32,000 nt of DNA from Geotalea daltonii FRC-32 (GCF_000022265.1 NC_011979.1:1950001-1982000), one strand, 5' to 3'. Counted from the first letter of the stretch, positions 17,300 through 30,854 are shown. Program-made: numbers and translations. The notes: generated by a model from the letters alone, not told the origin.

Positions 17300-18157
17300 T
17301 TACCGGGGGCGGTAGGCCATCGCCTCAAGTTTAGCGATCCGCTCTTCCATGGGGGGGTGAGTGGAGAAAAGATTGAGCAGTGCGCCGCCTGTCAGCGGGT
17401 TGACGATGAATAGATGGGCTGTTGCCGGACGGGCTTCGTGCATGGGAAGCATCTGTGATGCGCTCTGCAGCTTGCGCAGGGCACTTGCCAGAGATAAGGG
17501 GTTGCCGCAGATTTTTGCCCCCGATTCATCCGCCATGTATTCACGGGAACGGGAAACTGCCATCTGGATCAGCATTGCCGCTATGGGGGCGATGATGGCC
17601 ATGGCCAATCCGCCTATTGCACTTCCCCCTCCTTCTTCGTCGTTATGCCTGCCGCCGCCGAAGATTGCCGCCCACTGGAGCATGTTTCCGAGCATGGCGA
17701 TAGCGCCGGCGATGGTGGCGGCAATGGTGGAGATGAGAATGTCGCGGTTCTTCACGTGGGACAGCTCATGGGCCATCACCCCTTCCAACTCCTCTTGGGT
17801 AAGGATGCGCAGGATTCCTTCCGTGGCAGCCACTGCCGCATGCTCCGGGTTTCGCCCGGTGGCGAAGGCATTGGGGCTCTCCGACGGGATGATGTAAACT
17901 TTAGGCATGGGAAGGCCTGCTTGAATGGCCAGCCTGCGGACCATGCCGTAAAAGGCCGGGTTTTCCATCTCGGTTATCTCTTGGGCACCGTACATGCGGA
18001 GAACGATCTTATCGGAAAACCAGTAGGAGAAGACGTTCATGGCGCAGGCCACGAAAAAGGCGAAGACCATGCCGCTTCTGCCGCCAATGGCGCTGCCCAT
18101 GGCAACCATCAGCAGGGTGAGGCAGGTCAGGAGCAGGGTAGTTTTCAGTCGATTCAT
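17300..18157 (-). CDS. htpX: Zinc metalloprotease HtpX (peptidase M48)
   Basis: HELSHV zinc motif and 4 TM segments. I prefer the ATG at 18157 ([10 protein letters not shown]) with GGAGG upstream over the longer ORF-track start at 18244. Confidence 0.9.
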
Positions 18158-18185
18158 TTTTAACCTCCATTGAGTTTCGTCCGGG

Positions 18186-18240
18186 CAAACATAAAAGACC
18201 TTTACCCAGACGTGTTGATATCGCGTTGGATAAAGGTCTT
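18186..18240 (-). terminator. Terminator-like expression platform of the riboswitch
   Basis: Minus strand AAGACCUUUA(U)CCAACG...CGU(C)UGG(G)UAAAGGUCUU followed by UUAUGUUU. Its 5' arm is the same segment that forms the 3' strand of aptamer P1. Confidence 0.6.
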
Positions 18241-18485
18241 GCATGCGTTGACATATGTCGCGGCCCCTGGTCCGGGCCTTTAGCAGAATGTCGAAAAACT
18301 GCTGCGGAGCCGATCTGCTGCGTTACCACTTGCTCAAAACCTCATCGTACAATGGGTACGTTTCGGCTTTTCGCTCGTTTTAGCCTTGCATTTCGGCTTC
18401 CTCTCGACGTTTTTCGACAACCTGCTGGCCGTCCTGACGAACTGAGGGTCGGCCATTTCTCCGGCCGATTGCTACTCCCCTTTAC
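18231..18485 (-). promoter_or_regulatory. yybP-ykoY family Mn2+ riboswitch aptamer in the htpX leader
   Basis: The minus-strand RNA starts GUAAAGGGGAGUAGCAAUCGGCC (hallmark GGGGAGUAGC). It ends CGACAUAUGUCAACGCAUGCAAGACCUUUAU (hallmark GCAAGACC plus CCUUUA pairing with UAAAGG as P1). Compared from memory with the L. lactis and B. subtilis aptamers. Confidence 0.75.
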
Positions 18486-19113: not shown

Positions 19114-19239
19114 CTTATCATGATTTTGCCCTGTAATTACAGCTCTCTACATTATTGAAACAGCACAAAGCATTCCAAAGGCGAAGAAGTGGTGGTATAT
19201 AGATAGGCAGGCTTGTTACAAATTTTTCAGGAGTCAATA

Positions 19240-20250
19240 TTGAAAAAGAAAATTGCCATTATTGCCGTACTGGCCATATTGACTGCGGCTATTGCTTACT
19301 TCGTGTTGCGCGAAGAACCCGATACAAAAAGACTGGCTGTTTCCGGCACCATAGAGGTGGTTTCGGTGGAGGCCAGCTTCAAGGTCCCCGGCAGGGTCAA
19401 ATCCCGCCTGGTGGATGAGGGAGAGACGGTCCGAGTCGGCCAGGTTCTGGCCCTCTTGGAACCGGAGGACCTGAGCCATGATGTGGCACGCCTTGAAGCG
19501 GATAGGTCGGTGATGGAGGCTTCACTGGCCGAGCTTGAAGCCGGGTCGCGCCGCGAGGAAATTGCCCAGGCCCAGGCAGCTGCAGCCAGGGCAGAGGCTG
19601 AAGCCAACCGGCTGGAAAAGGAATATCAGAGGGACAAAGCCCTGTTTGCCAGGGAAGTGATTTCCCAGAGACAACTGGATGCATCCGGAACTGCCTTTGA
19701 GACTTCCCGGGCGGCTGTCAGCGAGGCAAGGGAGGGGCTGGCTCTGGTGCGCAAAGGCCCTCGCCGGGAAAAGATCGATCAGGCCAGGGGACGGCTTAAG
19801 GAAGCGCAGGCGGCCCTCGCCCAGGCTGAGACGAGACTTGGATATGCCACGTTGACCTCCCCCATCTCGGGATTGGTGCTGTCCAAACATGCGGAACCGG
19901 GTGAACTGGTGGCTGCGGGCACCCCCGTTGTCACTCTGGGGGACATCACCGATACCTGGCTGCGCGCTTACATCAGTGAGACCGATCTTGGTCGCGTTAA
20001 GGTGGGACAAGCGGTGCTGGTGAAGGTAGATACCTATCCAGGCAGGAGCTACCGCGGCAAGGTAACGTTCATTTCTCCGGAGGCCGAGTTTACGCCGAAA
20101 AATGTACAGACCGAAAAGGAGCGGGTAAAACTGGTCTATCGCATCAAAATTACGGTCCCCAATCCACAGATGGAGCTGAAGCCGGGCATGCCTGCCGACG
20201 CGGAAATTCTTCTATCTGCGCACCCTCCCTCAATCCCCCCTGTGGAATAG
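19240..20250 (+). CDS. HlyD-family membrane fusion/periplasmic adaptor protein
   Basis: N-terminal TM, coiled-coil-rich middle and a C-terminal beta-barrel region (TFISPEAEFTPKNVQT). The TTG start at 19240 has AGGAG 7 nt upstream; the ORF track gives 19213. Confidence 0.85.
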   Translation: MKKKIAIIAVLAILTAAIAYFVLREEPDTKRLAVSGTIEVVSVEASFKVPGRVKSRLVDEGETVRVGQVLALLEPEDLSHDVARLEADRSVMEASLAELEAGSRREEIAQAQAAAARAEAEANRLEKEYQRDKALFAREVISQRQLDASGTAFETSRAAVSEAREGLALVRKGPRREKIDQARGRLKEAQAALAQAETRLGYATLTSPISGLVLSKHAEPGELVAAGTPVVTLGDITDTWLRAYISETDLGRVKVGQAVLVKVDTYPGRSYRGKVTFISPEAEFTPKNVQTEKERVKLVYRIKITVPNPQMELKPGMPADAEILLSAHPPSIPPVE

Positions 20251-20258
20251 GGGGGATT
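20232..20258 (+). other. Hairpin overlapping the HlyD stop codon
   Basis: AATCCCCCC-N9-GGGGGGATT, a perfect 9-bp stem. Confidence 0.6.
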
Positions 20259-20281
20259 CGAACGCAAGTGAGTAGAGGGAT

Positions 20282-21229
20282 GTGAGAATTATGGATGCCA
20301 TCAAGATCGACAACCTGACCAAACGCTTCGATGCCATGATTGCCGTTGATGGCCTGACACTCACCGTCTCCAGAGGGGAATTGTTCGGCCTGGTCGGTTC
20401 CGACGGGGCGGGGAAAACCACCACCATGCGCATGCTCGCCGGTATCATGGATCCAAGCTCTGGTGATGCATGGATCATGGACAGGCATGCGGGGCGGGAA
20501 GGTGAGTCCCTTAAAGGGAGCATTGGATACATGAGCCAGCGTTTCGGACTGTATCCCGACCTGACGGTGCTGGAAAACATCCATTTCTTCGCTGATATCC
20601 ACGGCTTGCCACAAAAGGGGCGGCAGGAAAAAATCGACCGGCTGCTGGCCTTCAGTAACCTCACCCCGTTCAAAAAACGTCGCGCCGGTAATCTTTCCGG
20701 GGGCATGAAGCAGAAGCTGGGGCTGGCATGCGCCCTGATCCATACGCCGCAGGTACTTTTCCTGGACGAGCCGACCAATGGCGTCGACCCGGTTTCGCGG
20801 CGCGATTTCTGGCGCATTCTTTACCAGCTGCTCAAGGATGGCGTGACCATCTTCGTCGCCACCGCTTATCTGGATGAGGCTGACCGGTGCAACAGGGTGG
20901 GGCTGATCCACAAGGGAAAGCTGGTCGCATGCGGCACTCCCCAGGAGTTGAAACAGCTGATGCCGGGGGGGATTCTTGAAGTGCACACCGGCAATGCTCG
21001 CGCCTGTTTGCAGATTCTGCACCGGAAGCTGGAGGGTTACCAGGTCGGACTGTTCGGCGATCGTCTGCACATTGTCAGCGAAACCCCGGAGAAGACGCAG
21101 CTCCTGGTGCAGGACCTGCTAGGGGGCGAGGGTGTCGAAATTGTCAGCATTCGGCAGATCGAACCGTCCCTGGAGGATATATTTATTTCCGTCATAGGGG
21201 AAGAGGACGTCCATGCCACAGCCGGATGA
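20282..21229 (+). CDS. ABC transporter ATP-binding protein (first of two)
   Basis: Walker A GSDGAGKTT, signature LSGGMKQKL, Walker B VLFLDEP. The start may instead be ATG 20291. Confidence 0.9.
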   Translation: MRIMDAIKIDNLTKRFDAMIAVDGLTLTVSRGELFGLVGSDGAGKTTTMRMLAGIMDPSSGDAWIMDRHAGREGESLKGSIGYMSQRFGLYPDLTVLENIHFFADIHGLPQKGRQEKIDRLLAFSNLTPFKKRRAGNLSGGMKQKLGLACALIHTPQVLFLDEPTNGVDPVSRRDFWRILYQLLKDGVTIFVATAYLDEADRCNRVGLIHKGKLVACGTPQELKQLMPGGILEVHTGNARACLQILHRKLEGYQVGLFGDRLHIVSETPEKTQLLVQDLLGGEGVEIVSIRQIEPSLEDIFISVIGEEDVHATAG

Positions 21230-22184
21230 ATATGCCGTGTCCCTGCGCAACCTGGAAAAGCGCTTCGGCGACTTTGCCGCCGTGGACAGGATCAGTCTCG
21301 ACGTGGGGAAGGGGGAGATCTTCGGCTTTCTGGGACCGAACGGCGCCGGTAAATCCACCACCATCCGTATGCTCTGCGGCATCTTGCCTCCCAGTGACGG
21401 ATCGGGAACCGTTGCCGGTTTCGACGTCATCAACGAGACCGAGTCCATCAAGAAGAACATCGGCTATATGAGCCAGCGGTTTTCCCTCTACGAAGACCTG
21501 ACAGTCGAGGAAAATATCGACTTCTACAGCGGCATTTACAGGATTGCGCCCGAAAAACGGCAGGTGCGCAAGGATTGGGTCATCAGGATGGCCGGGCTGG
21601 AATCCCACCGCAATTCCCCTGCTTCAGTCCTTTCCGGAGGCTGGAAGCAGCGGCTGGCACTTGGCTGTGCCATTCTCCATGAGCCCCCCATCGTCTTTCT
21701 CGACGAACCCACCTCCGGTGTGGACCCGGCAAGCCGCCGCAATTTTTGGGATCTCATCTATCGCATGGCCGGAGAAGGCACAACCGTCTTCGTCACCACC
21801 CATTACATGGACGAAGCTGAGTACTGCGACCGCCTGGGCCTCATCTATCGGGGCCAACTGATTGCACTGGGAACACCCGCCCAGCTGAAGACGGAGTTCA
21901 TGACGGAAGAGGTCATCGAGCTGAAATGCCATGGGGCACAGGAACTGATGGAGGAAGTGGAGGCTCTGGACGGGGTGAAACATGCCGCCCTTTACGGCAA
22001 CGGCCTGCATGTGGTGACCGTTGACGGGGAAAAGTCCATTTCAGCTATCAGTGCACTGCTTGCCGGGAAAGGGATTGCCGCCGACCGGCTGGAGAAGATC
22101 GTGCCCTCCCTGGAGGATGTGTTTGTTTCCCTGATCGAGATGCGGGACCGGCAGGAGTCTCCCCAGCGGGAGTTCAGCCGGTAA
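21213..22184 (+). CDS. ABC transporter ATP-binding protein (second of two)
   Basis: Walker A GPNGAGKST, signature LSGGWKQRL, Walker B IVFLDEP. It overlaps the upstream gene by 17 nt. Confidence 0.9.
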   Translation: MPQPDEYAVSLRNLEKRFGDFAAVDRISLDVGKGEIFGFLGPNGAGKSTTIRMLCGILPPSDGSGTVAGFDVINETESIKKNIGYMSQRFSLYEDLTVEENIDFYSGIYRIAPEKRQVRKDWVIRMAGLESHRNSPASVLSGGWKQRLALGCAILHEPPIVFLDEPTSGVDPASRRNFWDLIYRMAGEGTTVFVTTHYMDEAEYCDRLGLIYRGQLIALGTPAQLKTEFMTEEVIELKCHGAQELMEEVEALDGVKHAALYGNGLHVVTVDGEKSISAISALLAGKGIAADRLEKIVPSLEDVFVSLIEMRDRQESPQREFSR

Positions 22185-22255
22185 GATTGCTTGAGGCCTG
22201 GCCGGAGTAAGGGGCAAACACCGGCAACGTATGCAGCCTTAGCCCCTCCCCCTAA

Positions 22256-22278
22256 CCCCCTCCCATAAAGGGAGGGGG
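22256..22278 (+). other. C-rich/G-rich hairpin in the ATPase-permease intergenic region
   Basis: CCCCCTCCC-ATAAA-GGGAGGGGG, a perfect 9-bp stem. Confidence 0.6.
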
Positions 22279-22294
22279 GACGAAAGTATAAATC

Positions 22295-23428
22295 ATGAAG
22301 ATACAGCGCATCAAGGCCGTTGCCCGAAAAGAATTTCTCCATGTCTTCCGCGACTGGCGCAGTCTGGGTATGGGCATTGCCATACCCATGATCATGCTTT
22401 TTCTTTTCGGCTATGCCCTGACCCTGGATGTGGACCGGGTTCCACTTATCGTCTGGGACCAGAGCAATAGTCCTGCCAGCCGGGAATTTGTCAGTGGTTT
22501 TACCGGTTCGCACTTTTTTGCCCTGCAGGGCCATGCTGCCGGTTACCAGGAGATAGAACAGGCTATAGATGACCGCTCGGCGCTGATTGCCCTTGTTGTT
22601 CCCCGCGACTTCGCCCGTTCCATCGAAGCGGGAAAAACCGTGGCGGTGCAGGCCATACTTGACGGCAGCGATCCCAACACCGCCACCTTTGCCCTGGGTT
22701 ATGCCGAGGCCGTCACCGGCAGCTTCTCCCGCAAGGTGGTCCTGGAGAGACTCAACCGAATGGGGATGCCTCCGTCCCGTGCCGGGATAGACATAAGGCC
22801 GCGGGTTTGGTTCAACAGCGACATGGTCTCCAAGAACTACATTTTTCCCGGCCTCATCGCCATAGTCATGATGGTGATCGCCTCCCTGCTTACCTCACTG
22901 ACCATAGCCAGGGAATGGGAAAACGGTACCATGGAGCAGCTCCTGGCGACGCCGGTGACAGGTCCCGAGCTGATCCTGGGCAAACTTACGCCCTACTTTG
23001 CCATCGGCCTCCTTGACCTCATCCTCTGTGTCATCGTCGGCGAGTTCTTCTTTGCCATCCCGCTCCGGGGGAGCCTGGTGCTGCTTTTCGCACTGTCGCT
23101 TCTCTTCCTGCTGGGGGCTCTGGGGCTCGGCATGCTGATCAGCATCGTCACCAAGAGTCAGCTGGTCGCTTCCCAACTGGCCCTGGTGGCGACCATGCTC
23201 CCCGCCTTTCTTCTTTCGGGATTCATCTTCCCCATCGAGAACATGCCGGTCCCGATCCAATTCGTTACACGCCTGGTATCAGCCAGCTATTTCGTCGTGC
23301 TCATCAGGGGGATTTACCTGAAGGATGTGGGGCTGAACATTCTTGCGGTGGAAACCACTTTTCTTGCCGTCTTTTGCTTGGCGGTCATAGCCCTTTCGGT
23401 GGCGAGGCTGAAGAAGAAGATAGAATAA
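22295..23428 (+). CDS. ABC-2 type transporter permease
   Basis: 377 aa. One N-terminal TM, a large extracytoplasmic loop, then 5 C-terminal TMs, as in YbhS/YbhR-type permeases. Confidence 0.9.
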   Translation: MKIQRIKAVARKEFLHVFRDWRSLGMGIAIPMIMLFLFGYALTLDVDRVPLIVWDQSNSPASREFVSGFTGSHFFALQGHAAGYQEIEQAIDDRSALIALVVPRDFARSIEAGKTVAVQAILDGSDPNTATFALGYAEAVTGSFSRKVVLERLNRMGMPPSRAGIDIRPRVWFNSDMVSKNYIFPGLIAIVMMVIASLLTSLTIAREWENGTMEQLLATPVTGPELILGKLTPYFAIGLLDLILCVIVGEFFFAIPLRGSLVLLFALSLLFLLGALGLGMLISIVTKSQLVASQLALVATMLPAFLLSGFIFPIENMPVPIQFVTRLVSASYFVVLIRGIYLKDVGLNILAVETTFLAVFCLAVIALSVARLKKKIE

Positions 23429-23446
23429 GGAGTGAGGAGTGAGGCT

Positions 23447-23618
23447 GGCTGCTGTGACTTCGTCCGTTCGTTCGGTCGCCACAGCTGCGGACCTTGCGGT
23501 GTCAATTTATATCAACGAGCCGGTAAACGATTGCCGCGAATGCGCCTCTGTTGCATCATTGGGCGGGTGTCCGCTCGCCGCTGCGGCTCTGTCACTCTCT
23601 CCCGAAGCCACAGCAGCC
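23447..23618. repeat. Long-range inverted repeat bracketing a ~170-bp structured intergenic element
   Basis: GGCTGCTGTGACTTCG (23447-23462) against CGAAGCCACAGCAGCC (23603-23618), 15/16 complementary. Preceded by the tandem GGAGTGA GGAGTGA at 23429-23442. Confidence 0.45.
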
Positions 23619-23645
23619 TGACCGGCTGCGGTTAAAAATAATAGG

Positions 23646-24782
23646 ATGGGTATGCTGGAACGGCTCAAAGCCATGCTGATCAAAGAGTTCATCCAGGTGC
23701 TGCGGGATCGCCGCATGCGCTTCATCATCTTTGTGGTGCCGGCGGTGCAGACGATAGTTTTCGGCTATGCCGTAAATACCGATGTGAGGAATGTGGCGAC
23801 GGCCGTCTATGACCTGGACAACACCAGGGAGAGCCGGGAGCTGGTGGCCCGCTTCGTTTCCTCCGGATATTTCAATGTTAAGGAATACATAGCCCGCGAG
23901 AGCAGAGTGCGGGATCTGGTTGATCGTGGCAAAGCGAAGGCGGTGCTGCGCATCGACAGCGGCTTCGGCCGGACCCTTGGCGCCGGCAATACCGCTCCGG
24001 TGCAGCTGATACTCGATGGTACCGACTCCAACACGGCCGGTATCGTCTTAAGCCACGCGGTCAGGATTGCCGCCCGTTATAGTGAGGATCTACAGGCAGG
24101 ACAGCTGGCCAGGAGCAGCGGCCGCGTGCAGTCTCCTGGCGGCGTGCACCTTGAGAGCCGGGCCTGGTTTAACAGCAACCTGGAGAGCCGCAATTTTTAT
24201 GTGCCTGCGGTCATCACCAATATCGTCTTCATCATTACCATGCTTCTTTCCAGCATGGCCATCGTCCGGGAAAAGGAGATCGGCACCATTGAGCAGATCA
24301 TCGTCACCCCCATCAGGAAGACCGAGTTTATCCTCGGCAAAACAATTCCTTTTGTCATAATCGGTTTTATCGATGTGGGACTTATCTCGGCAGTTGGCGC
24401 CTACTGGTTTGATGTACCGATCAGGGGCAGTTTCACACTTCTCTTTGCTGCCACCGGGCTTTTTCTCATGAGCTCCCTCGGCATCGGGCTTCTCATCTCA
24501 ACTGTCAGCCGGACCCAGCAGCAGGCCATGATGAGCGCCTTTATGGTCATCTTTCCCGCAATGTTGCTGTCGGGTTTTGCCTTTCCCATCGAGAACATGC
24601 CCACCCCTGTCCAGTGGCTGACCTTGCTCAATCCGATCCGCTATTACCTGGTGATCATTCGCGGTATTTTTCTCAAAGGAACGGGCATGGATATCCTCTG
24701 GCCACAGCTTGCAGCCCTTGCTGTTCTCGGCCTGGTAATCCTTCTCTTTTCCGTGCGGCGCTTCCGCAAGACGCTCTCCTGA
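23646..24782 (+). CDS. ABC-2 type transporter permease (paralogue of the previous gene)
   Basis: 378 aa with the same topology and conserved blocks (GFAFPIENMPTPVQWLT compared with GFIFPIENMPVPIQFVT). Confidence 0.9.
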   Translation: MGMLERLKAMLIKEFIQVLRDRRMRFIIFVVPAVQTIVFGYAVNTDVRNVATAVYDLDNTRESRELVARFVSSGYFNVKEYIARESRVRDLVDRGKAKAVLRIDSGFGRTLGAGNTAPVQLILDGTDSNTAGIVLSHAVRIAARYSEDLQAGQLARSSGRVQSPGGVHLESRAWFNSNLESRNFYVPAVITNIVFIITMLLSSMAIVREKEIGTIEQIIVTPIRKTEFILGKTIPFVIIGFIDVGLISAVGAYWFDVPIRGSFTLLFAATGLFLMSSLGIGLLISTVSRTQQQAMMSAFMVIFPAMLLSGFAFPIENMPTPVQWLTLLNPIRYYLVIIRGIFLKGTGMDILWPQLAALAVLGLVILLFSVRRFRKTLS

Positions 24783-24986
24783 TTCGGCGGCTTACCCTTG
24801 CGCGGTCCTTGCGGATCAGGGCTTAGCTGAATCATCTCCAGATGGGTATGCACCCTCTCTTTGCTTCCATTCCACCAGACTGCTGTTCAAATAACTAATT
24901 TTCCACCATTCCCGTTGATTGAATAAATCTCCCGGCGTGGTACACTCCATTAATAATTATATTTTAATGTGTGGTTGGAGAAACCT

Positions 24987-26453
24987 ATGCCGCGACAGAG
25001 TCCCAGGATAAAAGCGATTCTTCCCGCAAAGCTCGACACCTCTTCATCAAAAATTGAGACAGAAATTATCGATCTTGGACTCGATGGTGCCTATCTCAAG
25101 GTTTTACCTCCTGCTTTCCGCGACAAGATCCCATTGAACACCAAGGTCCTGTTGCAGTACGACCTTTTTGGTCAGGGACTTTTCGAGCATCGGGGAAACA
25201 TTGTCAGAAAGGATGGCCTGGGCTACGGAGTGCAATTTGCCGGCATCGACCGCATGACAAAAAACAAGCTTTGGCAGCTCATTGCCGGAAATTTCGACAA
25301 CACGGGGAGCTGTCCCTTCTGCGGTGAAAGTTATGGCCTTCTGCCGCCGGTATGCAAAAGTTGCGGCTGGCAGCTGGATTTCAATCCCCCTGGTTATCTT
25401 GACTACCATGAAAGGACCTGTCTGCTGAACAGGGTAAACGGCAACCTTGCAAAATTCGATCTGGACCAGCTGCAAAAGGTCTCCGGTTTTATCGATACGG
25501 ATATCCTCAAGCTGAAAGGGAACGATGACCTTGACCAGTTTGTCGGCACCGGCAAGGCGATGCTGGATGTTTTTGCCAATATCCGCAAGGTGGCGCCCAC
25601 CGATCTCACGGTGTTGATTTTGGGCGAAAGCGGTACCGGCAAGGAACTCACCGCCCAGGCGATCCACGAAAGAAGCCCACGCAAGGACAAGCCGTTCGTG
25701 GCGATAAACTGTGCCGCAATCCCGGATAATCTCCTGGAAGCCGAGCTGTTTGGTCACGAAAAGGGTGCTTTCACCGGTGCACATACCACGAAGAAGGGAA
25801 AATTCGAATATGCCGACAACGGCACGATCTTTCTCGACGAGATAGGGGACATGCCTTCCAACCTCCAGGCCAAGCTGCTGCGCTTCCTGCAGGACAAGAT
25901 CGTGGAAAGGGTCGGCACCGTCGGCGGAAAAAAAGTGAACGTAAGGGTTATTGCCGCCACCAACAGGGATCTCAGCGTGGCCATTGCCGAAGGCAAATTC
26001 CGCAGCGACCTTTACTACCGCCTTGACGAATTCGCCATCAACCTGCCACCGGTACGGGAAAGGGGGGAGGATACCCTGATACTGGCTAAATATTTCCTGA
26101 ACAAGTTTTCCCGGGAGGGGGGGCTGGCGAAGACCTTTACCAAGGAAGCCATCGATGTCATCAATAATTACGACTGGCCGGGAAATGTCAGGGAGATAAT
26201 CAACAAGGTCAGACGGTCCATCGTCATGGCTACGGGCAGATATGTGACCCCGGCGGATCTGATGCTGGACGTGGCGAAGGTTGAGGACGGAGCAGGCAAC
26301 AGCGATCTGAGCAGTGCCGTGGCCGTTCTGGAGAAGGAGAAGATAAAAGAGGTGTTCAAAAGCTGCAACTACAACATCTCTACGGCTGCCAAGCTGCTGG
26401 GGGTGAGCCGCCCCACCCTCTATCGGCGGATGAAAATCTACGGCATAGAGTGA
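24987..26453 (+). CDS. Sigma-54-dependent transcriptional activator with N-terminal PilZ domain and CxxC-N12-CxxC zinc ribbon
   Basis: Start at ATG 24987 (GGAG 7 nt upstream). PilZ motifs RQSPR and DLGLDG. Zinc ribbon CPFCGESYGLLPPVCKSC. AAA+ Walker A GESGTGKE, GAFTGA loop and a C-terminal Fis-type HTH (AAKLLGVSRPTLYRRMK). Confidence 0.9.
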   Translation: MPRQSPRIKAILPAKLDTSSSKIETEIIDLGLDGAYLKVLPPAFRDKIPLNTKVLLQYDLFGQGLFEHRGNIVRKDGLGYGVQFAGIDRMTKNKLWQLIAGNFDNTGSCPFCGESYGLLPPVCKSCGWQLDFNPPGYLDYHERTCLLNRVNGNLAKFDLDQLQKVSGFIDTDILKLKGNDDLDQFVGTGKAMLDVFANIRKVAPTDLTVLILGESGTGKELTAQAIHERSPRKDKPFVAINCAAIPDNLLEAELFGHEKGAFTGAHTTKKGKFEYADNGTIFLDEIGDMPSNLQAKLLRFLQDKIVERVGTVGGKKVNVRVIAATNRDLSVAIAEGKFRSDLYYRLDEFAINLPPVRERGEDTLILAKYFLNKFSREGGLAKTFTKEAIDVINNYDWPGNVREIINKVRRSIVMATGRYVTPADLMLDVAKVEDGAGNSDLSSAVAVLEKEKIKEVFKSCNYNISTAAKLLGVSRPTLYRRMKIYGIE

Positions 26454-26555
26454 GATGTAACAAGGAGAAAGGACGGCCAGGTGTATCAGAATTTTACAGA
26501 TTCACTGCTCCGTTGGATGTCCAAGTTGCTGAAAAATAAAGAACCACCGATGACC

Positions 26556-26585
26556 GTAACACCTGCTTAACAGATGTCAGGTTAC
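26556..26585. promoter_or_regulatory. Candidate upstream activator sequence (imperfect inverted repeat)
   Basis: GTAACACCTG-N12-CAGGTTAC lies ~110-135 bp upstream of the -24/-12 promoter. Further TGTAAC/GTTACA half-sites occur at 26456 and 26672. Confidence 0.3.
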
Positions 26586-26692
26586 ACATTTTTAACAATC
26601 TTTACAGAAATGGTTGCCACAGGAACCTGAACTGGAAGCAAAAAATAATAAAGATGTAGGAATAGCAGTGGGTTACAAATAAAGATGAGAGG

Positions 26693-26707
26693 TGGCACAT
26701 CAATTGC
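26693..26707 (+). promoter_or_regulatory. Sigma-54 (-24/-12) promoter
   Basis: TGGCAC-ATCAA-TTGC is an exact match to the TGGCAC-N5-TTGC consensus, ~60 nt upstream of the 26771 ATG and downstream of a sigma-54 activator gene. Confidence 0.75.
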
Positions 26708-26770
26708 CATAAGAGAAATAAGAGCAACGGCAGAGCGCCTTGCCAAAATCTAATTCTAGGAGGATATGTT

Positions 26771-27781
26771 ATGAAAAAGGGAAAAATGATCGTGACGATG
26801 GCTGTGGTCTCTGCCTTGGGGTTTGGCGGGCAGGCATTGGCAAATGATGAACTCGAAGTGGACGTGGATATCACCAAGACAGTGGAAGTGAACAAGAATT
26901 CCAACAATACGCTAGAGGTTGATGCCAGCAAAAACATTGAAGTCAAAAAAGAAGTCGAGGTAAATAAAACAATTGATTCAAATAACACCAAGGAGATTGA
27001 AGTTAATAAGACCGTAGAAGTAAAGAAAGCTGAAGGCGAAGCTGAAGGTAAAGGCAATGCAGTAGCCGTCAACGGCTCCACTTCTGACGTGACCGACAAT
27101 TCAAAAAAGCTTGAAGTCGGTGACGTCAACATAGACAAATCTACCGACAATTCAAAGAATCTTTCTGTCGGAGATGTGGACATCGATAAATCAAGCAAGG
27201 AAGTAGAGATTGAGAAAACTGAAAACGAAGCCCAGTACGGAAGCGTTGCAGCCATAGGGGGGAATGCTACGAAGGAGGAAGTGGACGGCGACATAGACAA
27301 TCTGTCAGGCGGCGCCGTGGCAGCTACCACCGGCGGCACTGCTTCCATGACAGACAGCTTCAACACTGACTCCAGCATCAACGCCACCGCCGAAGAGGGT
27401 GCCATTGCCGTCAATGCCGCAGGCGACGCTGACATCAGCACAACCGAGGAATCTTACAACAACCATGCCGAGGATCACAGTGCAGCTGCCTATAATGGCG
27501 ACGCCTACGCCCAGGAAAACTTCAACAATACCACCAACAGCAACAACCAGACCACCACCCTGACCGTCGGTGATGTGGATGTTGAAATCGCCTCCAGCGT
27601 TCTTAACGGTACAGTATCGAGCAACGTTGCCCCGACCGACGCAGAGGATGTGCCTCTGACCGGATACAATGAAATCAACGATTCCCTGGAATCTCCGAGT
27701 GGCATCACCGTCCTTTCACAGAACACCGGCTTCAGCTCACTGGTACAGCAGTCGGTCAATGTTCAGGTTAACAGGCCGTAA
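26771..27781 (+). CDS. Secreted repetitive protein (Cys- and Trp-free, N/D/E/K/T/V-rich), candidate major subunit
   Basis: AGGAGG RBS and signal peptide MKKGKMIVTMAVVSALGFGGQALA. Short xEVxK periodicity, a 17-aa tandem repeat, G/A/N-rich segments (GAIAVNAAGDA) and the C-terminal motif SGITVLSQNTGFSSLVQQSVNVQV. Confidence 0.8.
   Translation: MKKGKMIVTMAVVSALGFGGQALANDELEVDVDITKTVEVNKNSNNTLEVDASKNIEVKKEVEVNKTIDSNNTKEIEVNKTVEVKKAEGEAEGKGNAVAVNGSTSDVTDNSKKLEVGDVNIDKSTDNSKNLSVGDVDIDKSSKEVEIEKTENEAQYGSVAAIGGNATKEEVDGDIDNLSGGAVAATTGGTASMTDSFNTDSSINATAEEGAIAVNAAGDADISTTEESYNNHAEDHSAAAYNGDAYAQENFNNTTNSNNQTTTLTVGDVDVEIASSVLNGTVSSNVAPTDAEDVPLTGYNEINDSLESPSGITVLSQNTGFSSLVQQSVNVQVNRP
27092..27193 (+). 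repeat. Two imperfect tandem 51-nt repeats inside the secreted-protein gene
   Basis: TDNSKKLEVGDVNIDKS / TDNSKNLSVGDVDIDKS, about 73% nucleotide identity by eye. Confidence 0.8.
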
Positions 27782-27796
27782 GTGCAAATCACATGT

Positions 27797-27836
27797 TCAC
27801 CCCGGTGATGCATACGCGTCACCGGGTGCTTTTTTG
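27797..27836 (+). terminator. Intrinsic terminator/attenuator after the first secreted-protein gene
   Basis: CACCCCGGTGA-N10-TCACCGGGTG (one bulge) followed by CT6. Confidence 0.7.
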
Positions 27837-27876
27837 CCGAATTTAAATTTAGCTGCACCCATAAGGAGGCAGGAAA

Positions 27877-28278
27877 ATGCGAAGATCGACAAAAGCCCTG
27901 TTTGCCCTACTGGCTTTGTCTGCTGCCACCATCTCGGCTCAAGGGGCTTCGGCCAATGGAATCGGCCCAGGATCAGCCGGGGAGATGGTGACTACGGCCG
28001 ACCTGGAACTGGGGCAGTCATTAACCAACGAAAATCTGGATGACTTGACCGGACGGCAGAACATGAACGTGGACCAGCTCGACATGCAGCTAAACACTGC
28101 AACGCAATTGGGTGAGGCAGATGGTAACCTTATTAATGATTCGAACCTCACCACCGGCGCCAACGGCATCAGCGGCAACGCCTTTGCCCAGGCGAGCGGC
28201 CTGGTGACGGTGATCCAGAACTCTGGCAACCAGGTCCTGATTCAGAACGACCTGATCATGAATCTGACGGTGAAATGA
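27877..28278 (+). CDS. Small secreted protein sharing the C-terminal QN(S/T)G motif
   Basis: GGAGG RBS, signal peptide MRRSTKALFALLALSAATISAQG, and C-terminus SGLVTVIQNSGNQVLIQNDLIMNLTV. Confidence 0.75.
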   Translation: MRRSTKALFALLALSAATISAQGASANGIGPGSAGEMVTTADLELGQSLTNENLDDLTGRQNMNVDQLDMQLNTATQLGEADGNLINDSNLTTGANGISGNAFAQASGLVTVIQNSGNQVLIQNDLIMNLTVK

Positions 28279-28982
28279 AGCGTATGAAGCATTCCATATT
28301 ACCCGTTGCCTTTTTTGCATTGCTACCCATTCTTTTTGTGATATCGCCGGTCGAGGCGGGTACCATAGTGGTCCCCGGCGTGACCGGCGGTGCTTTTACC
28401 GTGAAGGTGACGAGTATAAAAGAAGCGCGTTTCCGTACCACGGTCCACCAGCAGTACGACTTCAGCTGTGGATCGGCGGCGCTGGCAACGCTGTTGACCT
28501 ATAATTACGAAGAGCCCGTTACGGAACAGGAAGTATTCAAGGCCATGTTCGACAAGGGGAATAAGGAGAAGATCCGTAGGGAAGGCTTTTCATTGCTGGA
28601 TATGAAGAATTACCTGGAGGAGAATGGCTACAAAGCTGCCGGGTACAAGGTAACCCTCGACCGGCTGTCGCAGATCGGCGTGCCGGCCATTGTGCTGATC
28701 AACATCAGGGGGTACAAACATTTTGTGGTGGTCAAGGGGGTTTCGGCAAAGTCGGTACTGGTCTCGGACCCGGCCGTTGGGGCCAAGACCATTCCCCGGG
28801 CCGAGTTTGAATCCACCTGGAACGGACTGATTTTCATCATATTGAACAAGAAAAATGTAGCTAAAAATTACTTCAACCGCGATCGAGAATGGCATGTCAA
28901 GGAGAAAGCGCCACTGGGCTTGGCCTTGAGCCCCAGCGAGCTTGCCAGCGTGACCTTGATGCTGCCGGGAGTATTGCGATGA
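28275..28982 (+). CDS. Signal-peptide-bearing (periplasmic) C39-family cysteine peptidase-like protein
   Basis: ATGA overlap with the upstream gene and an N-terminal signal peptide. QQYDFSCGSAALATLL (Gln plus catalytic Cys, TGT at 28467-28469) and YKHFVVVKG...VSDPAVG (His and Asp) match the C39 catalytic pattern. Confidence 0.85.
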   Translation: MKRMKHSILPVAFFALLPILFVISPVEAGTIVVPGVTGGAFTVKVTSIKEARFRTTVHQQYDFSCGSAALATLLTYNYEEPVTEQEVFKAMFDKGNKEKIRREGFSLLDMKNYLEENGYKAAGYKVTLDRLSQIGVPAIVLINIRGYKHFVVVKGVSAKSVLVSDPAVGAKTIPRAEFESTWNGLIFIILNKKNVAKNYFNRDREWHVKEKAPLGLALSPSELASVTLMLPGVLR

Positions 28983-29485
28983 CGCCAAAGGGGAAAGACC
29001 ATATGTGGAAAATCGCCCTATTGTTGGCAATAGTGATGTCTGCAACCAGTACGGCTTATGGGGATTGGGCGGAATGCAGGGACTGCAGCTCCCTTGCTGC
29101 CCAGGACCTTGAGCTGATCCGCGGTGGCTACCAGACCGGAGACGGCCTGGAGGTTTCTTTCGGCATCGAAAAGGCTGTGTTTATTAACGGCATACTGCAG
29201 GCTACCAGTACCTTGAACGTCCCGCTGCTGGGTGGCGAGTCGAGTCAGGCCCTGTCGGGCAACGTTCTGGCCGACAGGGCCATGACGATCCAGAAGGGCG
29301 CCGGCAATTCCATCGATATGGCCGGTGGTCGGGAGGGACTGTTTACCTTCATCCAAAACAGCCTCGATTTTGCCGCGATCAAGAACGTTACCCGCATAGA
29401 TGCCACGGTTAATGTCCTCAATACTTATCGCAACATGAATCTGAGGTCTTTGATCAACGAACAGCTGATCAATGCAATGAAATAA
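28979..29485 (+). CDS. Secreted protein with CxxC, double-glycine-leader-like motif and the shared C-terminal motif
   Basis: ATGA overlap with the C39 gene (alternative start ATG 29003). Signal peptide WKIALLLAIVMSATSTAYG, then AECRDCSSLAAQDLELIRGG. C-terminal region GLFTFIQNSLDFAAIKNVTRIDATVNV. Confidence 0.7.
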   Translation: MTPKGKDHMWKIALLLAIVMSATSTAYGDWAECRDCSSLAAQDLELIRGGYQTGDGLEVSFGIEKAVFINGILQATSTLNVPLLGGESSQALSGNVLADRAMTIQKGAGNSIDMAGGREGLFTFIQNSLDFAAIKNVTRIDATVNVLNTYRNMNLRSLINEQLINAMK

Positions 29486-29512
29486 AACATATCTGCCATG
29501 ACGGCTCATATG

Positions 29513-29555
29513 AAAAGCCGCCAATCCCAGTTTTTGGGGCTGGCGGCTTTTTTTT
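29513..29555. terminator. Bidirectional intrinsic terminator between the secreted-protein operon and the convergent barrel gene
   Basis: AAAAGCCGCCAATCCCA-GTTTT-TGGGGCTGGCGGCTTTTTTTT, with A-run and T-run flanks serving both strands. Confidence 0.8.
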
Positions 29556-29648
29556 CGGACAATGGACAGCCCCGGCTGCCGCGATTCGGCAATTTCATAG
29601 TAGTGAGCATGGGGTGCTTCCTTCCAGGAGGGAAAAGTACCGGACGAT

Positions 29649-30854
29649 CTACTTTCCCGTGAGCAGGAAACTGGTGGGAAGCCTCAAGGTCAACTGCACA
29701 TTGGAGGCGGCCGGCGTCAGTCCTGCGCCTATGGAGAAATTGGCCGATGTTTTTTCGGTCAACTTGTAGGAAAAGCCGAAGAGAAGGCTCCCCACCTGGG
29801 TGATGATCGAGCCGGGAATTTCGGTGCCGTCGATCTTCGGCTTGCCCAGGACGATATGGTCGTAGCCGATGCTGAAGGAGGATTTTTCGTTGAGTGCCAC
29901 ACCGATACCGAAGTTGAAGCCGATGGTGTCCCCCGGGTCCATTCTGCCTTGGCCCGGGACCTTTCTCGCCATATTCCACATGTAGCTCACGGTGCCGAAA
30001 AATACTGCCGGGTCGGAAGAAAAGATGGCGCTGATCCCCGGTTGGATGCCCCAGAAGCCCGACCCCGTGGGAAGTTCCGTCTGCAACGGTACCCCCGATG
30101 GGCTGGTCACGTTGGTCGCGGTGGGAACCTCGAAGGGATCCTTGCCGGTGATGGATTTTACCCGCAGGTTGGCGATGAAATAGGGACCGTTTCCCCCCGG
30201 CTGGTTAAGCTGAAAACGGGGACCGAATTCGACGTCACCCATATTGTTCCCGTCGGCGGTGAACACACTTGCCGGTATCCGGTTGCCCGTATTGGGATCG
30301 GTAGTCGGTTCGAACGAGGTGGAATCGGAACGGTAGACGTAGGGGACCCTGGCTTCGAATTCTACCCGGTTGGTGATGCCGTAGCGTGCTCCCAGGGAGA
30401 CGACGTAGGTATTGCTGTTGACGTTCCGCACATCGATGAGCCCGATGGTGAAGGAGGGAATGATAGTATAGCCGCTCAGTGCCACACGGTTGGAGGAGGA
30501 ATTGGAGAACTGGAATGATGGCTCCAGGACCAGCGTTCCCTTGGGGGTCAGTACCCCCGGTTGATCGAAGATCGGAGCTATATCCGGCGTCCGCGCTTCT
30601 CCAGGCTGCCCAACCGGCGGCTCATGAATATGCGTCCTAGTTGCCTCGGTGCGCATTTCTTTTTTCGCCTCGTCTGCTTTGGCAGTTGCCTTCTTTTCAT
30701 TTCCTTTTTTGGTGGAGGTGATTTCCCGGTCCTGTTCCGGCGGCCGGTTTTTTCCTTTGCCGGGGGGGGGAGACTCTGCGCAAAACGAATTTGCAGACAG
30801 CAACATCAAAGCCACCCAGACGCAGGCGGTAATGGTTTTTCCACGAGCAGGCAT
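29649..30854 (-). CDS. Outer-membrane beta-barrel protein with charged low-complexity N-terminal extension
   Basis: Signal peptide, then an ~80-aa K/E/P-rich segment (KKGNEKKATAKADEAKKEMRTEA...PPVGQPGEARTP). After that come alternating amphipathic strands (LGARYGITNRVEFEARVPYVY, FGFSYKL, NVQLTLRLP). It resembles 'transporter'/MetA-phenol-degradation-type barrels from memory. GGAGGA RBS. Confidence 0.75.
   Translation of the reverse strand: MPARGKTITACVWVALMLLSANSFCAESPPPGKGKNRPPEQDREITSTKKGNEKKATAKADEAKKEMRTEATRTHIHEPPVGQPGEARTPDIAPIFDQPGVLTPKGTLVLEPSFQFSNSSSNRVALSGYTIIPSFTIGLIDVRNVNSNTYVVSLGARYGITNRVEFEARVPYVYRSDSTSFEPTTDPNTGNRIPASVFTADGNNMGDVEFGPRFQLNQPGGNGPYFIANLRVKSITGKDPFEVPTATNVTSPSGVPLQTELPTGSGFWGIQPGISAIFSSDPAVFFGTVSYMWNMARKVPGQGRMDPGDTIGFNFGIGVALNEKSSFSIGYDHIVLGKPKIDGTEIPGSIITQVGSLLFGFSYKLTEKTSANFSIGAGLTPAASNVQLTLRLPTSFLLTGK

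Follow-up and report, generated by a model that had tools for sequence, protein, structure and literature searches.

The DNA analysed here, further referred to as the window, is a stretch of 32,000 nucleotides from Geotalea (Geobacter) daltonii FRC-32 (NC_011979.1:1950001-1982000), and the region discussed is covered by the locus tags Geob_1785-1790. Genes for three secreted proteins, designated A, B, and C, were found on its plus strand. Protein A (336 amino acids; 26771-27781; delineated by ORF and translation) combines a signal peptide with a long stretch of charged, low-complexity sequence and a single C-terminal repeat module (residues 300-334; 27668-27772), and retrieved no match in Pfam or NCBIfam. 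Protein B (133 amino acids; 27877-28278; 100% match to Geob_1787) combines a signal peptide, a segment resembling a leader, and a single repeat module (residues 92-133; 28150-28275). Protein C (160 amino acids; 29003-29485) contains a signal peptide, a canonical double-glycine leader, a beta-rich region, two copies of the motif dealt with below, and a helix-like C-terminal tail; its gene most likely begins with the ATG at 29003, which yields this signal peptide, and not at 28889. The original prediction considered the three genes as adjacent, but the gene for a periplasmic C39 cysteine peptidase (235 amino acids; 28275-28982, plus strand; Pfam Peptidase_C39, 3e-25) sits between those for B and C. 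This peptidase possesses a visible N-terminal signal peptide and matched the NCBIfam models FapD (3.3e-51; 173.7 bits, under the cut-off of 330) and FilB (2.4e-36), and its residues C65, H149, and D165 were invariant in an alignment with Aeromonas FapD and Acinetobacter FilB. Judged from these matches, it is a homologue of FapD, not an equivalog. The minus strand encodes an outer-membrane beta-barrel homologous to FapF (401 amino acids; 29649-30854; Pfam Phenol_MetA_deg, 8e-8; NCBIfam FapF, 2.4e-42 and 145 bits, under the cut-off of 700; FilC, 7e-8), a putative export pore.

Upstream of these genes, the plus strand carries a regulator gene (24969-26453), whose product combines an N-terminal PilZ domain (Pfam PilZ, 1.1e-9), a sigma-54 AAA+ activator domain (Sigma54_activat, 8e-72), and a Fis-type HTH (HTH_8, 8e-13), and which is probably a c-di-GMP-responsive activator of the locus. 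A sigma-54 promoter-like site (TGGCAC-N5-TTGC; 26693-26707, plus strand) was found 64 nucleotides upstream of the start codon of A. It was the sole exact match in the window, but matches with one mismatch were no more frequent than expected by chance, so the support for this site comes from its position and the adjoining activator gene. Two terminator-like hairpins were present on the plus strand as well, one followed by a T-run in the gap between A and B (27801-27836; 11-pair stem with 8 G-C pairs, then TGCTTTTTTG) and one between the convergent genes for C and the barrel (29527-29553), the latter retrieved by a hairpin search and sequence reading.

A motif common to the three secreted proteins was located by means of the DNA sequence and the ORF translations. 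In A, the segment SGITVLSQNTGFSSLVQQSVNVQV forms the core of the repeat module and spans 24 residues in the frame of ORF 26771-27781, from 27698 to 27769; its start had been placed correctly before, but its end at 27772 had included one extra N (3 nucleotides). In B, the segment SGLVTVIQNSGNQVLIQNDLIMNLTV lies exactly where it had been placed, at 28195-28272 inside ORF 27877-28278. In C, the segment EGLFTFIQNSLDFAAIKNVTRIDATV starts at 29333 as given earlier and spans 26 residues up to 29410; the previous end at 29416 had added the residues VN (6 nucleotides). The motif is followed by three residues before the stop in A, by one in B, and by 24 in C. Counted by hand, position-by-position identities amounted to 7/24 for A and B, 11/26 for B and C, and 3/24 for A and C. 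When the last 30 residues of 77 B orthologues were made into a profile and run against the 136 window ORFs of at least 60 amino acids, C ranked second (E=0.018) and A was not detected (E=6.5), so that the three-way match is marginal when judged from the window sequence only. These values, together with the low identity between A and C, are what would be expected if the three-way similarity were a chance match of low-complexity Q/N-rich sequence.

A comparison of related loci argues strongly against such a chance match. A motif HMM was scanned over the 5,291 ORFs of 88 related loci. It returned 172 significant domains, spread over 70 of these loci; every one was encoded on the same strand as the peptidase and at most 2.3 kb from the peptidase gene, with zero copies away from the genes flanking it. 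Exactly three motif ORFs were found in 42 of these loci, and the main copy of C (29333-29410, plus strand) scored 46.5 bits. Within each family, the motif was the most conserved part of the protein across several phyla. Indeed, in B orthologues TVIQNSGN-VLIQN was invariant in 77 sequences, and in 32 C proteins Q118 and N119 were invariant; the invariant motif residues of B are Q114, N115, G117, N118, and Q123. Family profile comparisons (hhalign) were significant too, both for the A-family C-terminus versus the B family (probability 94.6%, E 6.7e-8) and for the B versus C families (98.4%, E 7.3e-15), the latter including the main motif segment. The distribution of HMM matches and these profile comparisons refute a chance low-complexity match, which is left with a negligible probability. 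The scan proposed originally, for clustering beside C39 peptidase and barrel genes, gave a strongly positive outcome, and neither absence of the motif from orthologues nor its abundance in unrelated cytoplasmic proteins was seen in the sequences examined; the common motif in three secreted proteins is real. In contrast, the view that these proteins are otherwise dissimilar did not hold, as A and B have about 50 aligned columns in common, and B and C also have an N-terminal leader in common.

The five-gene arrangement recurs, together with the motif, in alpha-, beta-, and gammaproteobacteria as well as in Desulfobacterota and Nitrospira. B homologues numbered 81, and the B family comprised at least 1,295 cluster representatives at 50% identity (E<=1e-3). 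In 60 loci, the B gene directly preceded the peptidase gene, and in 45 loci the C gene directly followed it. Of the 71 loci with enough flank, 64 encoded a homologous barrel no more than 6 kb from the peptidase gene. An activator gene was present in 33 of these 71 loci; in related loci, a sigma-54 activator with a VpsR-type N-terminus was found beside the barrel gene. A FapD-like peptidase gene occurred in at least 598 species genomes, the 80 best-matching loci of which were checked for the present variant. The A orthologues ranged from 364 to 864 amino acids, with unrelated low-complexity bodies and the same C-terminus.

The motif makes up the conserved core of a repeat module of about 35-50 residues with the pattern ..N.I..gaF..a.G..tV.QNsG...l.QQ/N..v.v., which occurs in tandem in several relatives. 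Two A proteins of related loci contained 10 (L013) and 20 (L026) copies, a further relative (P0154) contained 19, and in another (P0163) 10 matched stretches were retrieved by a library search. An HMM built solely from the tandem units of multi-repeat relatives matched A at residues 300-334 (E 5.4e-6) and B at residues 92-124 (E 1.8e-9). A, B, and C each carry one significant copy of the module. A degenerate first copy in C (AMTIQKGAGNSIDMAG; 29279-29326, plus strand; C-family consensus lvQnG.gN.v), upstream of the main copy and visible in orthologues, was below significance by itself. Profile comparison (hhalign) related 55 tandem units to the B family (97.3%, E 1.9e-11), to A (93.2%, E 3e-7), to C (E 8e-4), and to the canonical Fap repeats (80.7%, E 1.3e-5), with all alignments in one register. 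Furthermore, an iterative HMM search seeded with Pseudomonas and Aeromonas Fap repeats reached residues 98-124 of the window B protein at iteration 5 (E 1.9e-8) and gave no off-strand or distant matches, and the NCBI FapB model weakly matched three intermediates (L069, 3e-6; L054, 7e-4; L013, 1.5e-3). The curated FapB, FapC, and FapE models, however, did not match A, B, or C of the window or of Cupriavidus (for A and B, no match to NCBIfam FapB or FapC at E<=10), and when the B-family profile was compared directly with that of eight Fap repeats, the match was not significant (probability 0.7%, E 0.04) and placed the Fap repeat elsewhere on B. The link with Fap is transitive because of these two results, and the chain of steps that makes it up had modest E-values of 2e-5 to 6e-4.

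Leader-like segments were found in the two small proteins. In C, a double-glycine leader (L31-G42, LAAQDLELIRGG; 29093-29128, plus strand) was recognised by a pattern conserved in 32 C-family proteins, all of which contained L at -7, R at -3, and GG at -2/-1, with mostly V, A, or L at -12, mostly S at -11, and M, V, L, or I at -4; cleavage is predicted after G42. In B, leader statistics and alignment with the C leader, also obtained when B and C were compared with hhalign, indicated a double-glycine-type leader remnant (L49-R60, LTNENLDDLTGR; 28021-28056, plus strand), and the candidate peptidase site is after G59-R60. Among 58 B proteins, 52 had L at position -7, 39 had R at -3, and 45 had G at -2, and the leader ended in GG in 31 cases, in GR in nine, and in GR or GK together in 12. 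In its N-terminal region, C appears to be FapE-like by sequence. Indeed, the C family aligned with Aeromonas FapE (hhalign, 91.4%, E 9e-7) over the N-terminal 30 columns only, a similarity made up of the leader and the adjoining strand with the motif outside the aligned part, and the C-family HMM retrieved FapE with an E of 0.0014 among 89 ORFs, although C did not match the NCBIfam FapE model.

In the Fap system, every FapC repeat makes up a single Greek-key cross-beta layer that is held together by conserved Asn, Gln, and Gly residues (PMC12392863), with 52-62 residues per layer in the cryo-EM structure. For FapE, repeat-like stretches rich in N and Q have been described in the C-terminal part, along with processing of the N-terminus (PMC5557850). 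Against this background, each of A, B, and C may carry one cross-beta layer unit that is used in co-polymerisation after export, and the module may be a distant relative of the imperfect FapB and FapC repeats; for these two statements jointly, a probability of roughly 0.6 is estimated. The idea of a shared polymerisation unit of the curlin/Fap-repeat kind, which had been put forward beforehand together with that of an export signal, is supported by the adjoining FapD and FapF homologues, the 10-20 tandem copies, and the profile link to Fap repeats. According to the proposed mechanism, A, B, and C would enter the periplasm via Sec, where the peptidase would cut the double-glycine-type leader off C and B, leaving a mature B of about 65-73 residues, or about one FapC cross-beta layer. 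The proteins would then exit the cell unfolded via the barrel, and outside the cell the module would fold as a strand-turn-strand arch held by Gln/Asn ladders, the folded modules stacking on one another. Protein B, a putative one-layer nucleator by analogy with FapB, would start the fibre, and the FapE-like C would be an anchor or initiator. Protein A, putatively the major subunit by analogy with FapC, would be the bulk subunit, its variable low-complexity body decorating the fibre. Expression would probably be driven by the adjoining PilZ/sigma-54 activator from the promoter upstream of A, and the terminator after A may lower the dose of B, the peptidase, and C.

Alternatively, the motif may be mainly an export or targeting signal that marks the three substrates in the periplasm for the barrel, or for the peptidase in a chaperone role, the likeness to amyloid repeats being secondary; both functions could coexist. 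Such a signal would fit the position of the motif, which in nearly all of about 120 A and B cases was 1-8 residues away from the C-terminus, and the multi-repeat relatives and Aeromonas FapC end in a repeat too. It would also fit the use of one exporter by three proteins, and a FapF targeting signal is not stated in the Fap literature examined, the processed FapE N-terminus being only speculated to be one (PMC5557850). However, in C the motif lies 24-28 residues from the end, and relatives carry 10-20 internal copies, for which a signal would have no need. Moreover, the last residue of these proteins is Q, K, H, R, or P and not the aromatic residue of the OMP-type beta-signal (an aromatic residue occurred in the last three positions of 3/46 A, 14/59 B, and 1/44 C proteins), and the related Fap repeats make up the fibril core (PMC12392863). 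A role mainly in export is considered unlikely on these grounds.

The module may also be the repeat of a non-amyloid beta-solenoid surface protein, such as an adhesin or S-layer-like coat, whereby multi-repeat proteins would fold as monomeric solenoids and the single-copy A, B, and C would act through strand complementation or capping. The relatives with 10-20 repeats could indeed make a self-contained solenoid, the large variable low-complexity bodies of A resemble adhesin stalks, and the related Acinetobacter FilB and FilC are annotated in a putative pilus system. Yet a lone repeat, the commonest state in the family, cannot fold as a solenoid, FilA lacks the motif, and the machinery is homologous to an amyloid exporter. 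In addition, AlphaFold2 gave no confident monomer fold for B (pLDDT 50); the monomer model of C showed no fold either (pLDDT 32). A solenoid coat is judged distinctly improbable.

Returning to co-polymerisation, the closest known system is that of Pseudomonas (fapABCDEF), with which the locus shares a C39 peptidase and a barrel homologous to FapD and FapF, a gene after the peptidase gene whose product appears to be FapE-like with a processed-type N-terminus, a main subunit with variable, non-conserved regions, and a Q/N/G-rich repeat in one register (DGGAFNGAVGNIGVNVSSGTNNLQANN in Aeromonas FapC versus SGNAFAQASGLVTVIQNSGNQVLIQN in the window B protein). Similarly, the final repeat of Aeromonas FapC ends about three residues before the C-terminus. 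In contrast, surveys with FapB/FapC repeat models found three repeats in FapB and FapC almost invariably and a nearly invariant operon structure (PMC12822426), whereas A, B, and C each contain one significant repeat, a state without precedent in that family. The repeat core is hydrophobic with Q-N (TVIQNSGNxVLIQN), whereas that of Fap is GNIGVNVAAGxxNQQxN; the peptidase and barrel score far under the equivalog cut-offs; the gene for the large subunit comes ahead of that for the small one; the barrel is frequently encoded on the opposite strand; FapA is lacking; and the sigma-54 activator carries a PilZ or VpsR-type N-terminus. Colocalised fapD and fapF homologues have been described in five additional phyla (Rouse et al. 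2018, PMC6173800), and the window locus is very probably one of these pairs. For pairs outside canonical fap operons, the passages of that review considered here name no substrates or common repeat, whereas three substrate families and a module are defined here.

The locus is apparently an undescribed, widespread variant of the Fap-type system. Its export machinery is homologous to that of Fap, yet its subunits are missed by the NCBI curated FapB, FapC, and FapE models, and the family, with members in Geobacteraceae, Cupriavidus, Ralstonia, Rhodanobacter, Thiobacillus, and Nitrospira, seems to extend about as widely as canonical Fap. More tentatively, it may represent a large unrecognised sister branch of Fap, in which a fibre is built from subunits that each give one cross-beta layer, with one layer type common to a nucleator of about 65 residues when mature, a FapE-like initiator, and a cargo-bearing major subunit, and with the two small ones licensed by periplasmic removal of a bacteriocin-type double-glycine leader. 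If so, this would be a minimal natural one-layer functional amyloid, and FapD-type peptidases would have been assigned the substrates and the recognition site that have long been sought for them. The sequence L-x-x-hydrophobic-R-G-G is a clear candidate cleavage site for such peptidases; the FapD substrate in Pseudomonas is still described as uncertain. The natural single- and many-repeat variants offer material to relate repeat number to amyloid nucleation and stability. The product is likely a c-di-GMP/sigma-54-controlled matrix component of Geobacter-type biofilms, which matter for extracellular electron transfer.

Other systems resemble the locus in part. The double-glycine leader consensus is LSxxELxxIxGG, and the leader of C fits that of class II bacteriocins and microcins at positions -12, -11, -7, -4, -2, and -1. 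Those leaders are cut by the C39 domains of ABC exporters, whereas here the leader follows a Sec signal peptide and a stand-alone peptidase is predicted to cut it in the periplasm, and B often displays G-R or G-K instead of G-G. The Fil locus of Acinetobacter baumannii (NCBIfam FilA/FilB/FilC, 'putative pilus system') encodes FilB (C39) and FilC (barrel), homologous to the peptidase and barrel, but the peptidase identity is only about 34% and the motif is absent from the locus, FilA and the other Fil proteins lacking it; the FilB and FilC models matched with low scores, and the FilA model did not match A, B, or C. Curli differ in their export by CsgG/E/F, which is unrelated to the FapF/FapD-like export considered here, and none of the curli export families was found among the scanned genes (14926-16227, 17300-18244, and 19213-30854; Pfam/NCBIfam). 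Neither Pfam (E<=0.1) nor the NCBIfam curlin model matched A, B, or C, and the spacing of conserved residues in the main motif is off by one to two positions. With CsgA and CsgB, however, the proteins share Q/N-rich strand-turn-strand units with a Gly-Asn turn and the logic of a nucleator and a major subunit. The curlin core consensus is Q-x-G-x-G-N-x-A, and the degenerate first copy of C, with Q-x-G-x-G-N-x-hydrophobic, resembles it.

The region starts with a gene coding for a PilZ/sigma-54 activator (24969-26453), followed by a sigma-54 site (TGGCAC-N5-TTGC, -24/-12; 26693-26707), the sole exact match within the window, ahead of the gene for secreted protein A (26771-27781; 336 aa). The latter gene is set apart by a strong terminator-like hairpin (27801-27836) from those coding for secreted protein B (27877-28278; 133 aa; 100% identical to Geob_1787 of Geotalea (Geobacter) daltonii FRC-32), a C39 peptidase (28275-28982), and secreted protein C (160 aa; start most likely at 29003). 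A second hairpin lies after gene C, before the convergent beta-barrel gene (29649-30854; minus strand). Within NCBIfam, the model nearest to the peptidase was FapD (E 3e-51; 173.7 bits against a cut-off of 330) and that nearest to the barrel was FapF (E 2e-42; 145 bits against a cut-off of 700), whereas FilB and FilC of Acinetobacter were matched more weakly. The peptidase and barrel machinery is homologous to that of the Pseudomonas-type functional amyloid (Fap) system. For A, B, and C, no family was retrieved from Pfam or NCBIfam, even at E<=10, and a search of PDB sequences with the B-orthologue profile yielded chance matches only (SoxR, tau). AlphaFold2 monomers of B (pLDDT 49.7; 77-sequence alignment) and C (pLDDT 31.7; 9 sequences) were too poor to interpret. 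The body of A (26771-27450) consists of short charged amphipathic repeats, with EVEVNK, DVDIDKS, and GSVAAIGGNAT-type units; it had no counterpart in orthologues of other genera, which carry Gly-rich or Thr/Asn-rich bodies instead, and looks like rapidly evolving surface-exposed cargo. Upstream (19213-24782), genes coding for an HlyD-type membrane-fusion protein, two ABC ATPases, and two ABC-2 permeases form an efflux-type transporter. The latter was rejected as part of the system and is probably unrelated, because it neighbours the system in none of the three related loci listed (L001-L003).

The original prediction was that A, B, and C share a Q/N-rich C-terminal motif, which could serve either as a recognition signal for an outer-membrane exporter or as a polymerisation unit. 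The three segments, starting at 27698 (A), 28195 (B), and 29333 (C), had the predicted frames and starts, although two of their ends had been placed 3 and 6 nt too far. Inside the window alone, evidence for the three-way similarity was thin, as a profile built from 77 B orthologues (last 30 residues) and searched against the 136 window ORFs retrieved C at E=0.018 and missed A. The motif is nevertheless real, because it is conserved. Indeed, TVIQNSGN-VLIQN is invariant in B orthologues, the remaining protein drifting to approximately 35% identity. In the orthologous clusters L001-L004, the gene order A-B-peptidase-C is retained and a barrel-sized gene comes next in convergent orientation, with a sigma-54 activator gene behind it in L001 and L003/L004. 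The motif is kept in all three proteins of these clusters despite wholly different A bodies, of which one is Thr/Asn/Asp-rich and another is Gly-rich (842 aa). Relatives of the peptidase, sought with its alignment in one genome per species, occurred in at least 598 species, the best 80 loci belonging to alpha-, beta-, and gammaproteobacteria, Desulfobacterota, Nitrospira, and others. An HMM of the motif (14 seed segments of A, B, and C; one iteration), applied to the 5,291 ORFs of 88 loci, found 172 significant domains in 70 loci. All of these were located on the peptidase strand, at most 2.3 kb from the peptidase gene, so that the proposed clustering of the motif beside C39 peptidase and barrel genes was clearly borne out. 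Exactly three motif-bearing ORFs were present in 42 loci. Among the 71 loci with enough flanking sequence, 64 contained a FapF-like barrel within 6 kb of the peptidase gene and 33 a sigma-54 activator. Chance similarity of the three segments is excluded. In addition, an exhaustive search of 1.84 billion cluster representatives with the B-family HMM returned 1,295 matches at E<=1e-3, of which 720 reached E<=1e-10; among the 150 listed, almost all were 110-150 aa long.

Profile-profile comparison aligned the C-terminus of A with B over approximately 50 columns (probability 94.6%, E 6.7e-8), so that the shared element extends beyond the motif predicted originally. Proteins B and C had an N-terminal segment in common in addition to the motif (98.4%, E 7.3e-15); direct comparison of A with C was not significant, yet the two aligned in the same register. 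The longer repeat unit around the motif core, the module, occurs many times in the A-type protein of some loci (10 copies in L013, 20 in L026, and 19 in P0154), and for P0163 a library search returned 10 matched stretches. A typical tandem unit reads GGSFSGAMGIANVQQNNGDHNAIQ. Consequently, the repeat number in this family spans 1 to approximately 20. The tandem copies of these A relatives (L013:3784-6414, L026:1248-6302, P0154, and P0163) are spaced at approximately 70-80 residues, and in P0163 only 2 residues follow the last copy (...GIQANVK). With an HMM built from tandem units only, A (residues 300-334) and B (92-124) each showed a single significant copy, and C showed a weak one. It is possible that the many-repeat proteins are non-amyloid solenoids or adhesins.

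The distribution of these copies bears on a possible role in export, which could coexist with polymerisation. In the related loci, only 1-8 residues follow the motif in A and B, and this strict C-terminal placement favours an export signal. However, in C it is internal, ending 24-28 residues from the C-terminus, and the tandem copies of the relatives are internal too, which, together with non-aromatic C-termini, argues against a pure export signal. An OMP-type C-terminal beta-signal was rejected on the basis of C-terminus composition. Protein C also contains a second, degenerate copy upstream of its main motif (TIQKGAGNSI; 29279-29326; family consensus lvQnG.gN.v), which reads like the curlin core Q-x-G-x-G-N-x-A. 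The tail of C after the main motif (29411-29482) is conserved, residues 147-159 (29441-29479) forming a helix in the low-confidence AlphaFold2 model.

Regarding the relation to known amyloid subunits, curated FapB, FapC, and FapE models matched the Aeromonas fap operon (L006), used as a control, and did not match A, B, or C of the window or of Cupriavidus metallidurans. Likewise, direct hhalign comparison of the three protein families with eight canonical Fap repeats, taken from Pseudomonas sp. UK4 FapC (PDB 9nqd, 9u4u) and Aeromonas FapB and FapC, was not significant, and the A and B family HMMs matched nothing in the fap locus of Aeromonas or the fil locus of Acinetobacter. Because of these null hhalign and family-HMM comparisons, A and B were not assigned to FapB or FapC, and the subunits cannot be classed as either. 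In an alignment comparison, 55 tandem units of this kind matched the canonical Fap repeats (80.7% probability, E 1.3e-5), the B family (97.3%, E 1.9e-11), and the A family (93.2%, E 3e-7), and weakly the C motif (E 8e-4), all in one common register. Furthermore, an iterative HMM started from canonical Fap repeats reached the window B protein at the fifth round (residues 98-124; E 1.9e-8), through steps with E-values of only 2e-5 to 6e-4, and gathered no off-strand or distant ORF on the way. Independently, the NCBI FapB model weakly matched three intermediates (3e-6, 7e-4, and 1.5e-3). Most probably, the motif is thus an imperfect repeat of the Fap type that has diverged strongly. A motif variant, for example GVGLVNVVTGNNNAV or GVGNFVTNTGNNNNLQG, occurs in a small protein encoded ahead of the peptidase gene in some loci of alphaproteobacteria and in one of Motiliproteus (L057:6355-6780, L061:6478-6909, L079:6490-6900, and L023:6592-6939). 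The first motif HMMs did not pick it up; by eye, it seems to stand between the motif of Geobacter and the repeat of canonical Fap, GNIGVNVSSGTNNLQ. Over 30 N-terminal columns, protein C resembled FapE of Aeromonas (91.4%, E 9e-7), the FapE alignment being shallow because its homologues were only close relatives of the Aeromonas protein, all those with a source name being from Aeromonas. As is the case for FapE, the gene for C is placed after the peptidase gene. A tblastn search of a plasmid collection with Aeromonas FapF revealed no canonical fap operons outside Aeromonas.

The alignment of B with C further revealed a conserved segment after the Sec signal peptide of both proteins, with the same position in L001-L087. 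In C (29093-29128), it reads V/A/L(-12)-S-x-x-x-L(-7)-D-x-[MVLI](-4)-R-G-G, of which L, R, and GG are invariant in 32 of 32 proteins. The leader of B (28021-28056) is looser and ends in G-R in the window protein; L(-7) occurs in 52 of 58 proteins, and GG, GR, and GK in 31, 9, and 3, respectively. Such a leader was not found in A. Substrates of C39 peptidases carry a double-glycine leader with the consensus LSxxELxxIxGG, which the C leader fits, and the B/C leader is likely the cleavage site of the adjacent peptidase. At the corresponding position, Aeromonas FapE has ELAHLRGR. The first ~70 residues of FapE are absent from the mature protein, and the active-site Cys of FapD is required for secretion, its substrate having been left open (Rouse et al., PMC5557850). 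Cleavage at the predicted site would give a mature B of 73 residues (61-133) in the window, with a family median of approximately 65, close to the 52-62 residues of one Greek-key layer in the cryo-EM structure of FapC (PMC12392863).

We infer that A, B, and C would reach the periplasm via Sec, where the peptidase may strip the leaders from C and B, and that all three would pass unfolded through the barrel. Outside the cell, the shared modules may stack into a cross-beta fibre, with B as putative nucleator, C as anchor or initiator, and A as bulk subunit displaying its variable low-complexity body. The sigma-54 site before gene A, the PilZ activator (VpsR-type in related loci), and the terminator after gene A together suggest c-di-GMP-linked expression, typical of biofilm matrix genes, with A in excess. 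Partial read-through of the hairpin at 27801-27836 could keep A high relative to the other products, and a simple sigma-70 scan found no separate promoter for B. The PilZ domain is N-terminal on the window activator, its counterparts in related loci having a VpsR-type N-terminus instead.

Among known Fap systems, three repeats are almost invariably present in FapB and FapC, and canonical clusters make up more than 90% of those detected (PMC12822426). In five further phyla, homologues of fapD and fapF have been reported to colocalise, the part of that review consulted naming no substrates (PMC6173800). Some members of the present family may already be among the 'non-canonical' clusters of such surveys, and a literature search (locus tags; C39/sigma-54/amyloid system) retrieved no paper on this locus or variant. 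The variant Fap-like locus constitutes a solid, testable lead, although it is not surprising in kind. A full variant system is present on the megaplasmid of C. metallidurans CH34 (NC_007974.2, 67040-72658), where B and the peptidase are accompanied by a Gly-rich A (511 aa), a long C, and a barrel whose N-terminal segment resembles a coiled coil. CH34 is a well-studied strain and would make a convenient experimental host for this variant system.
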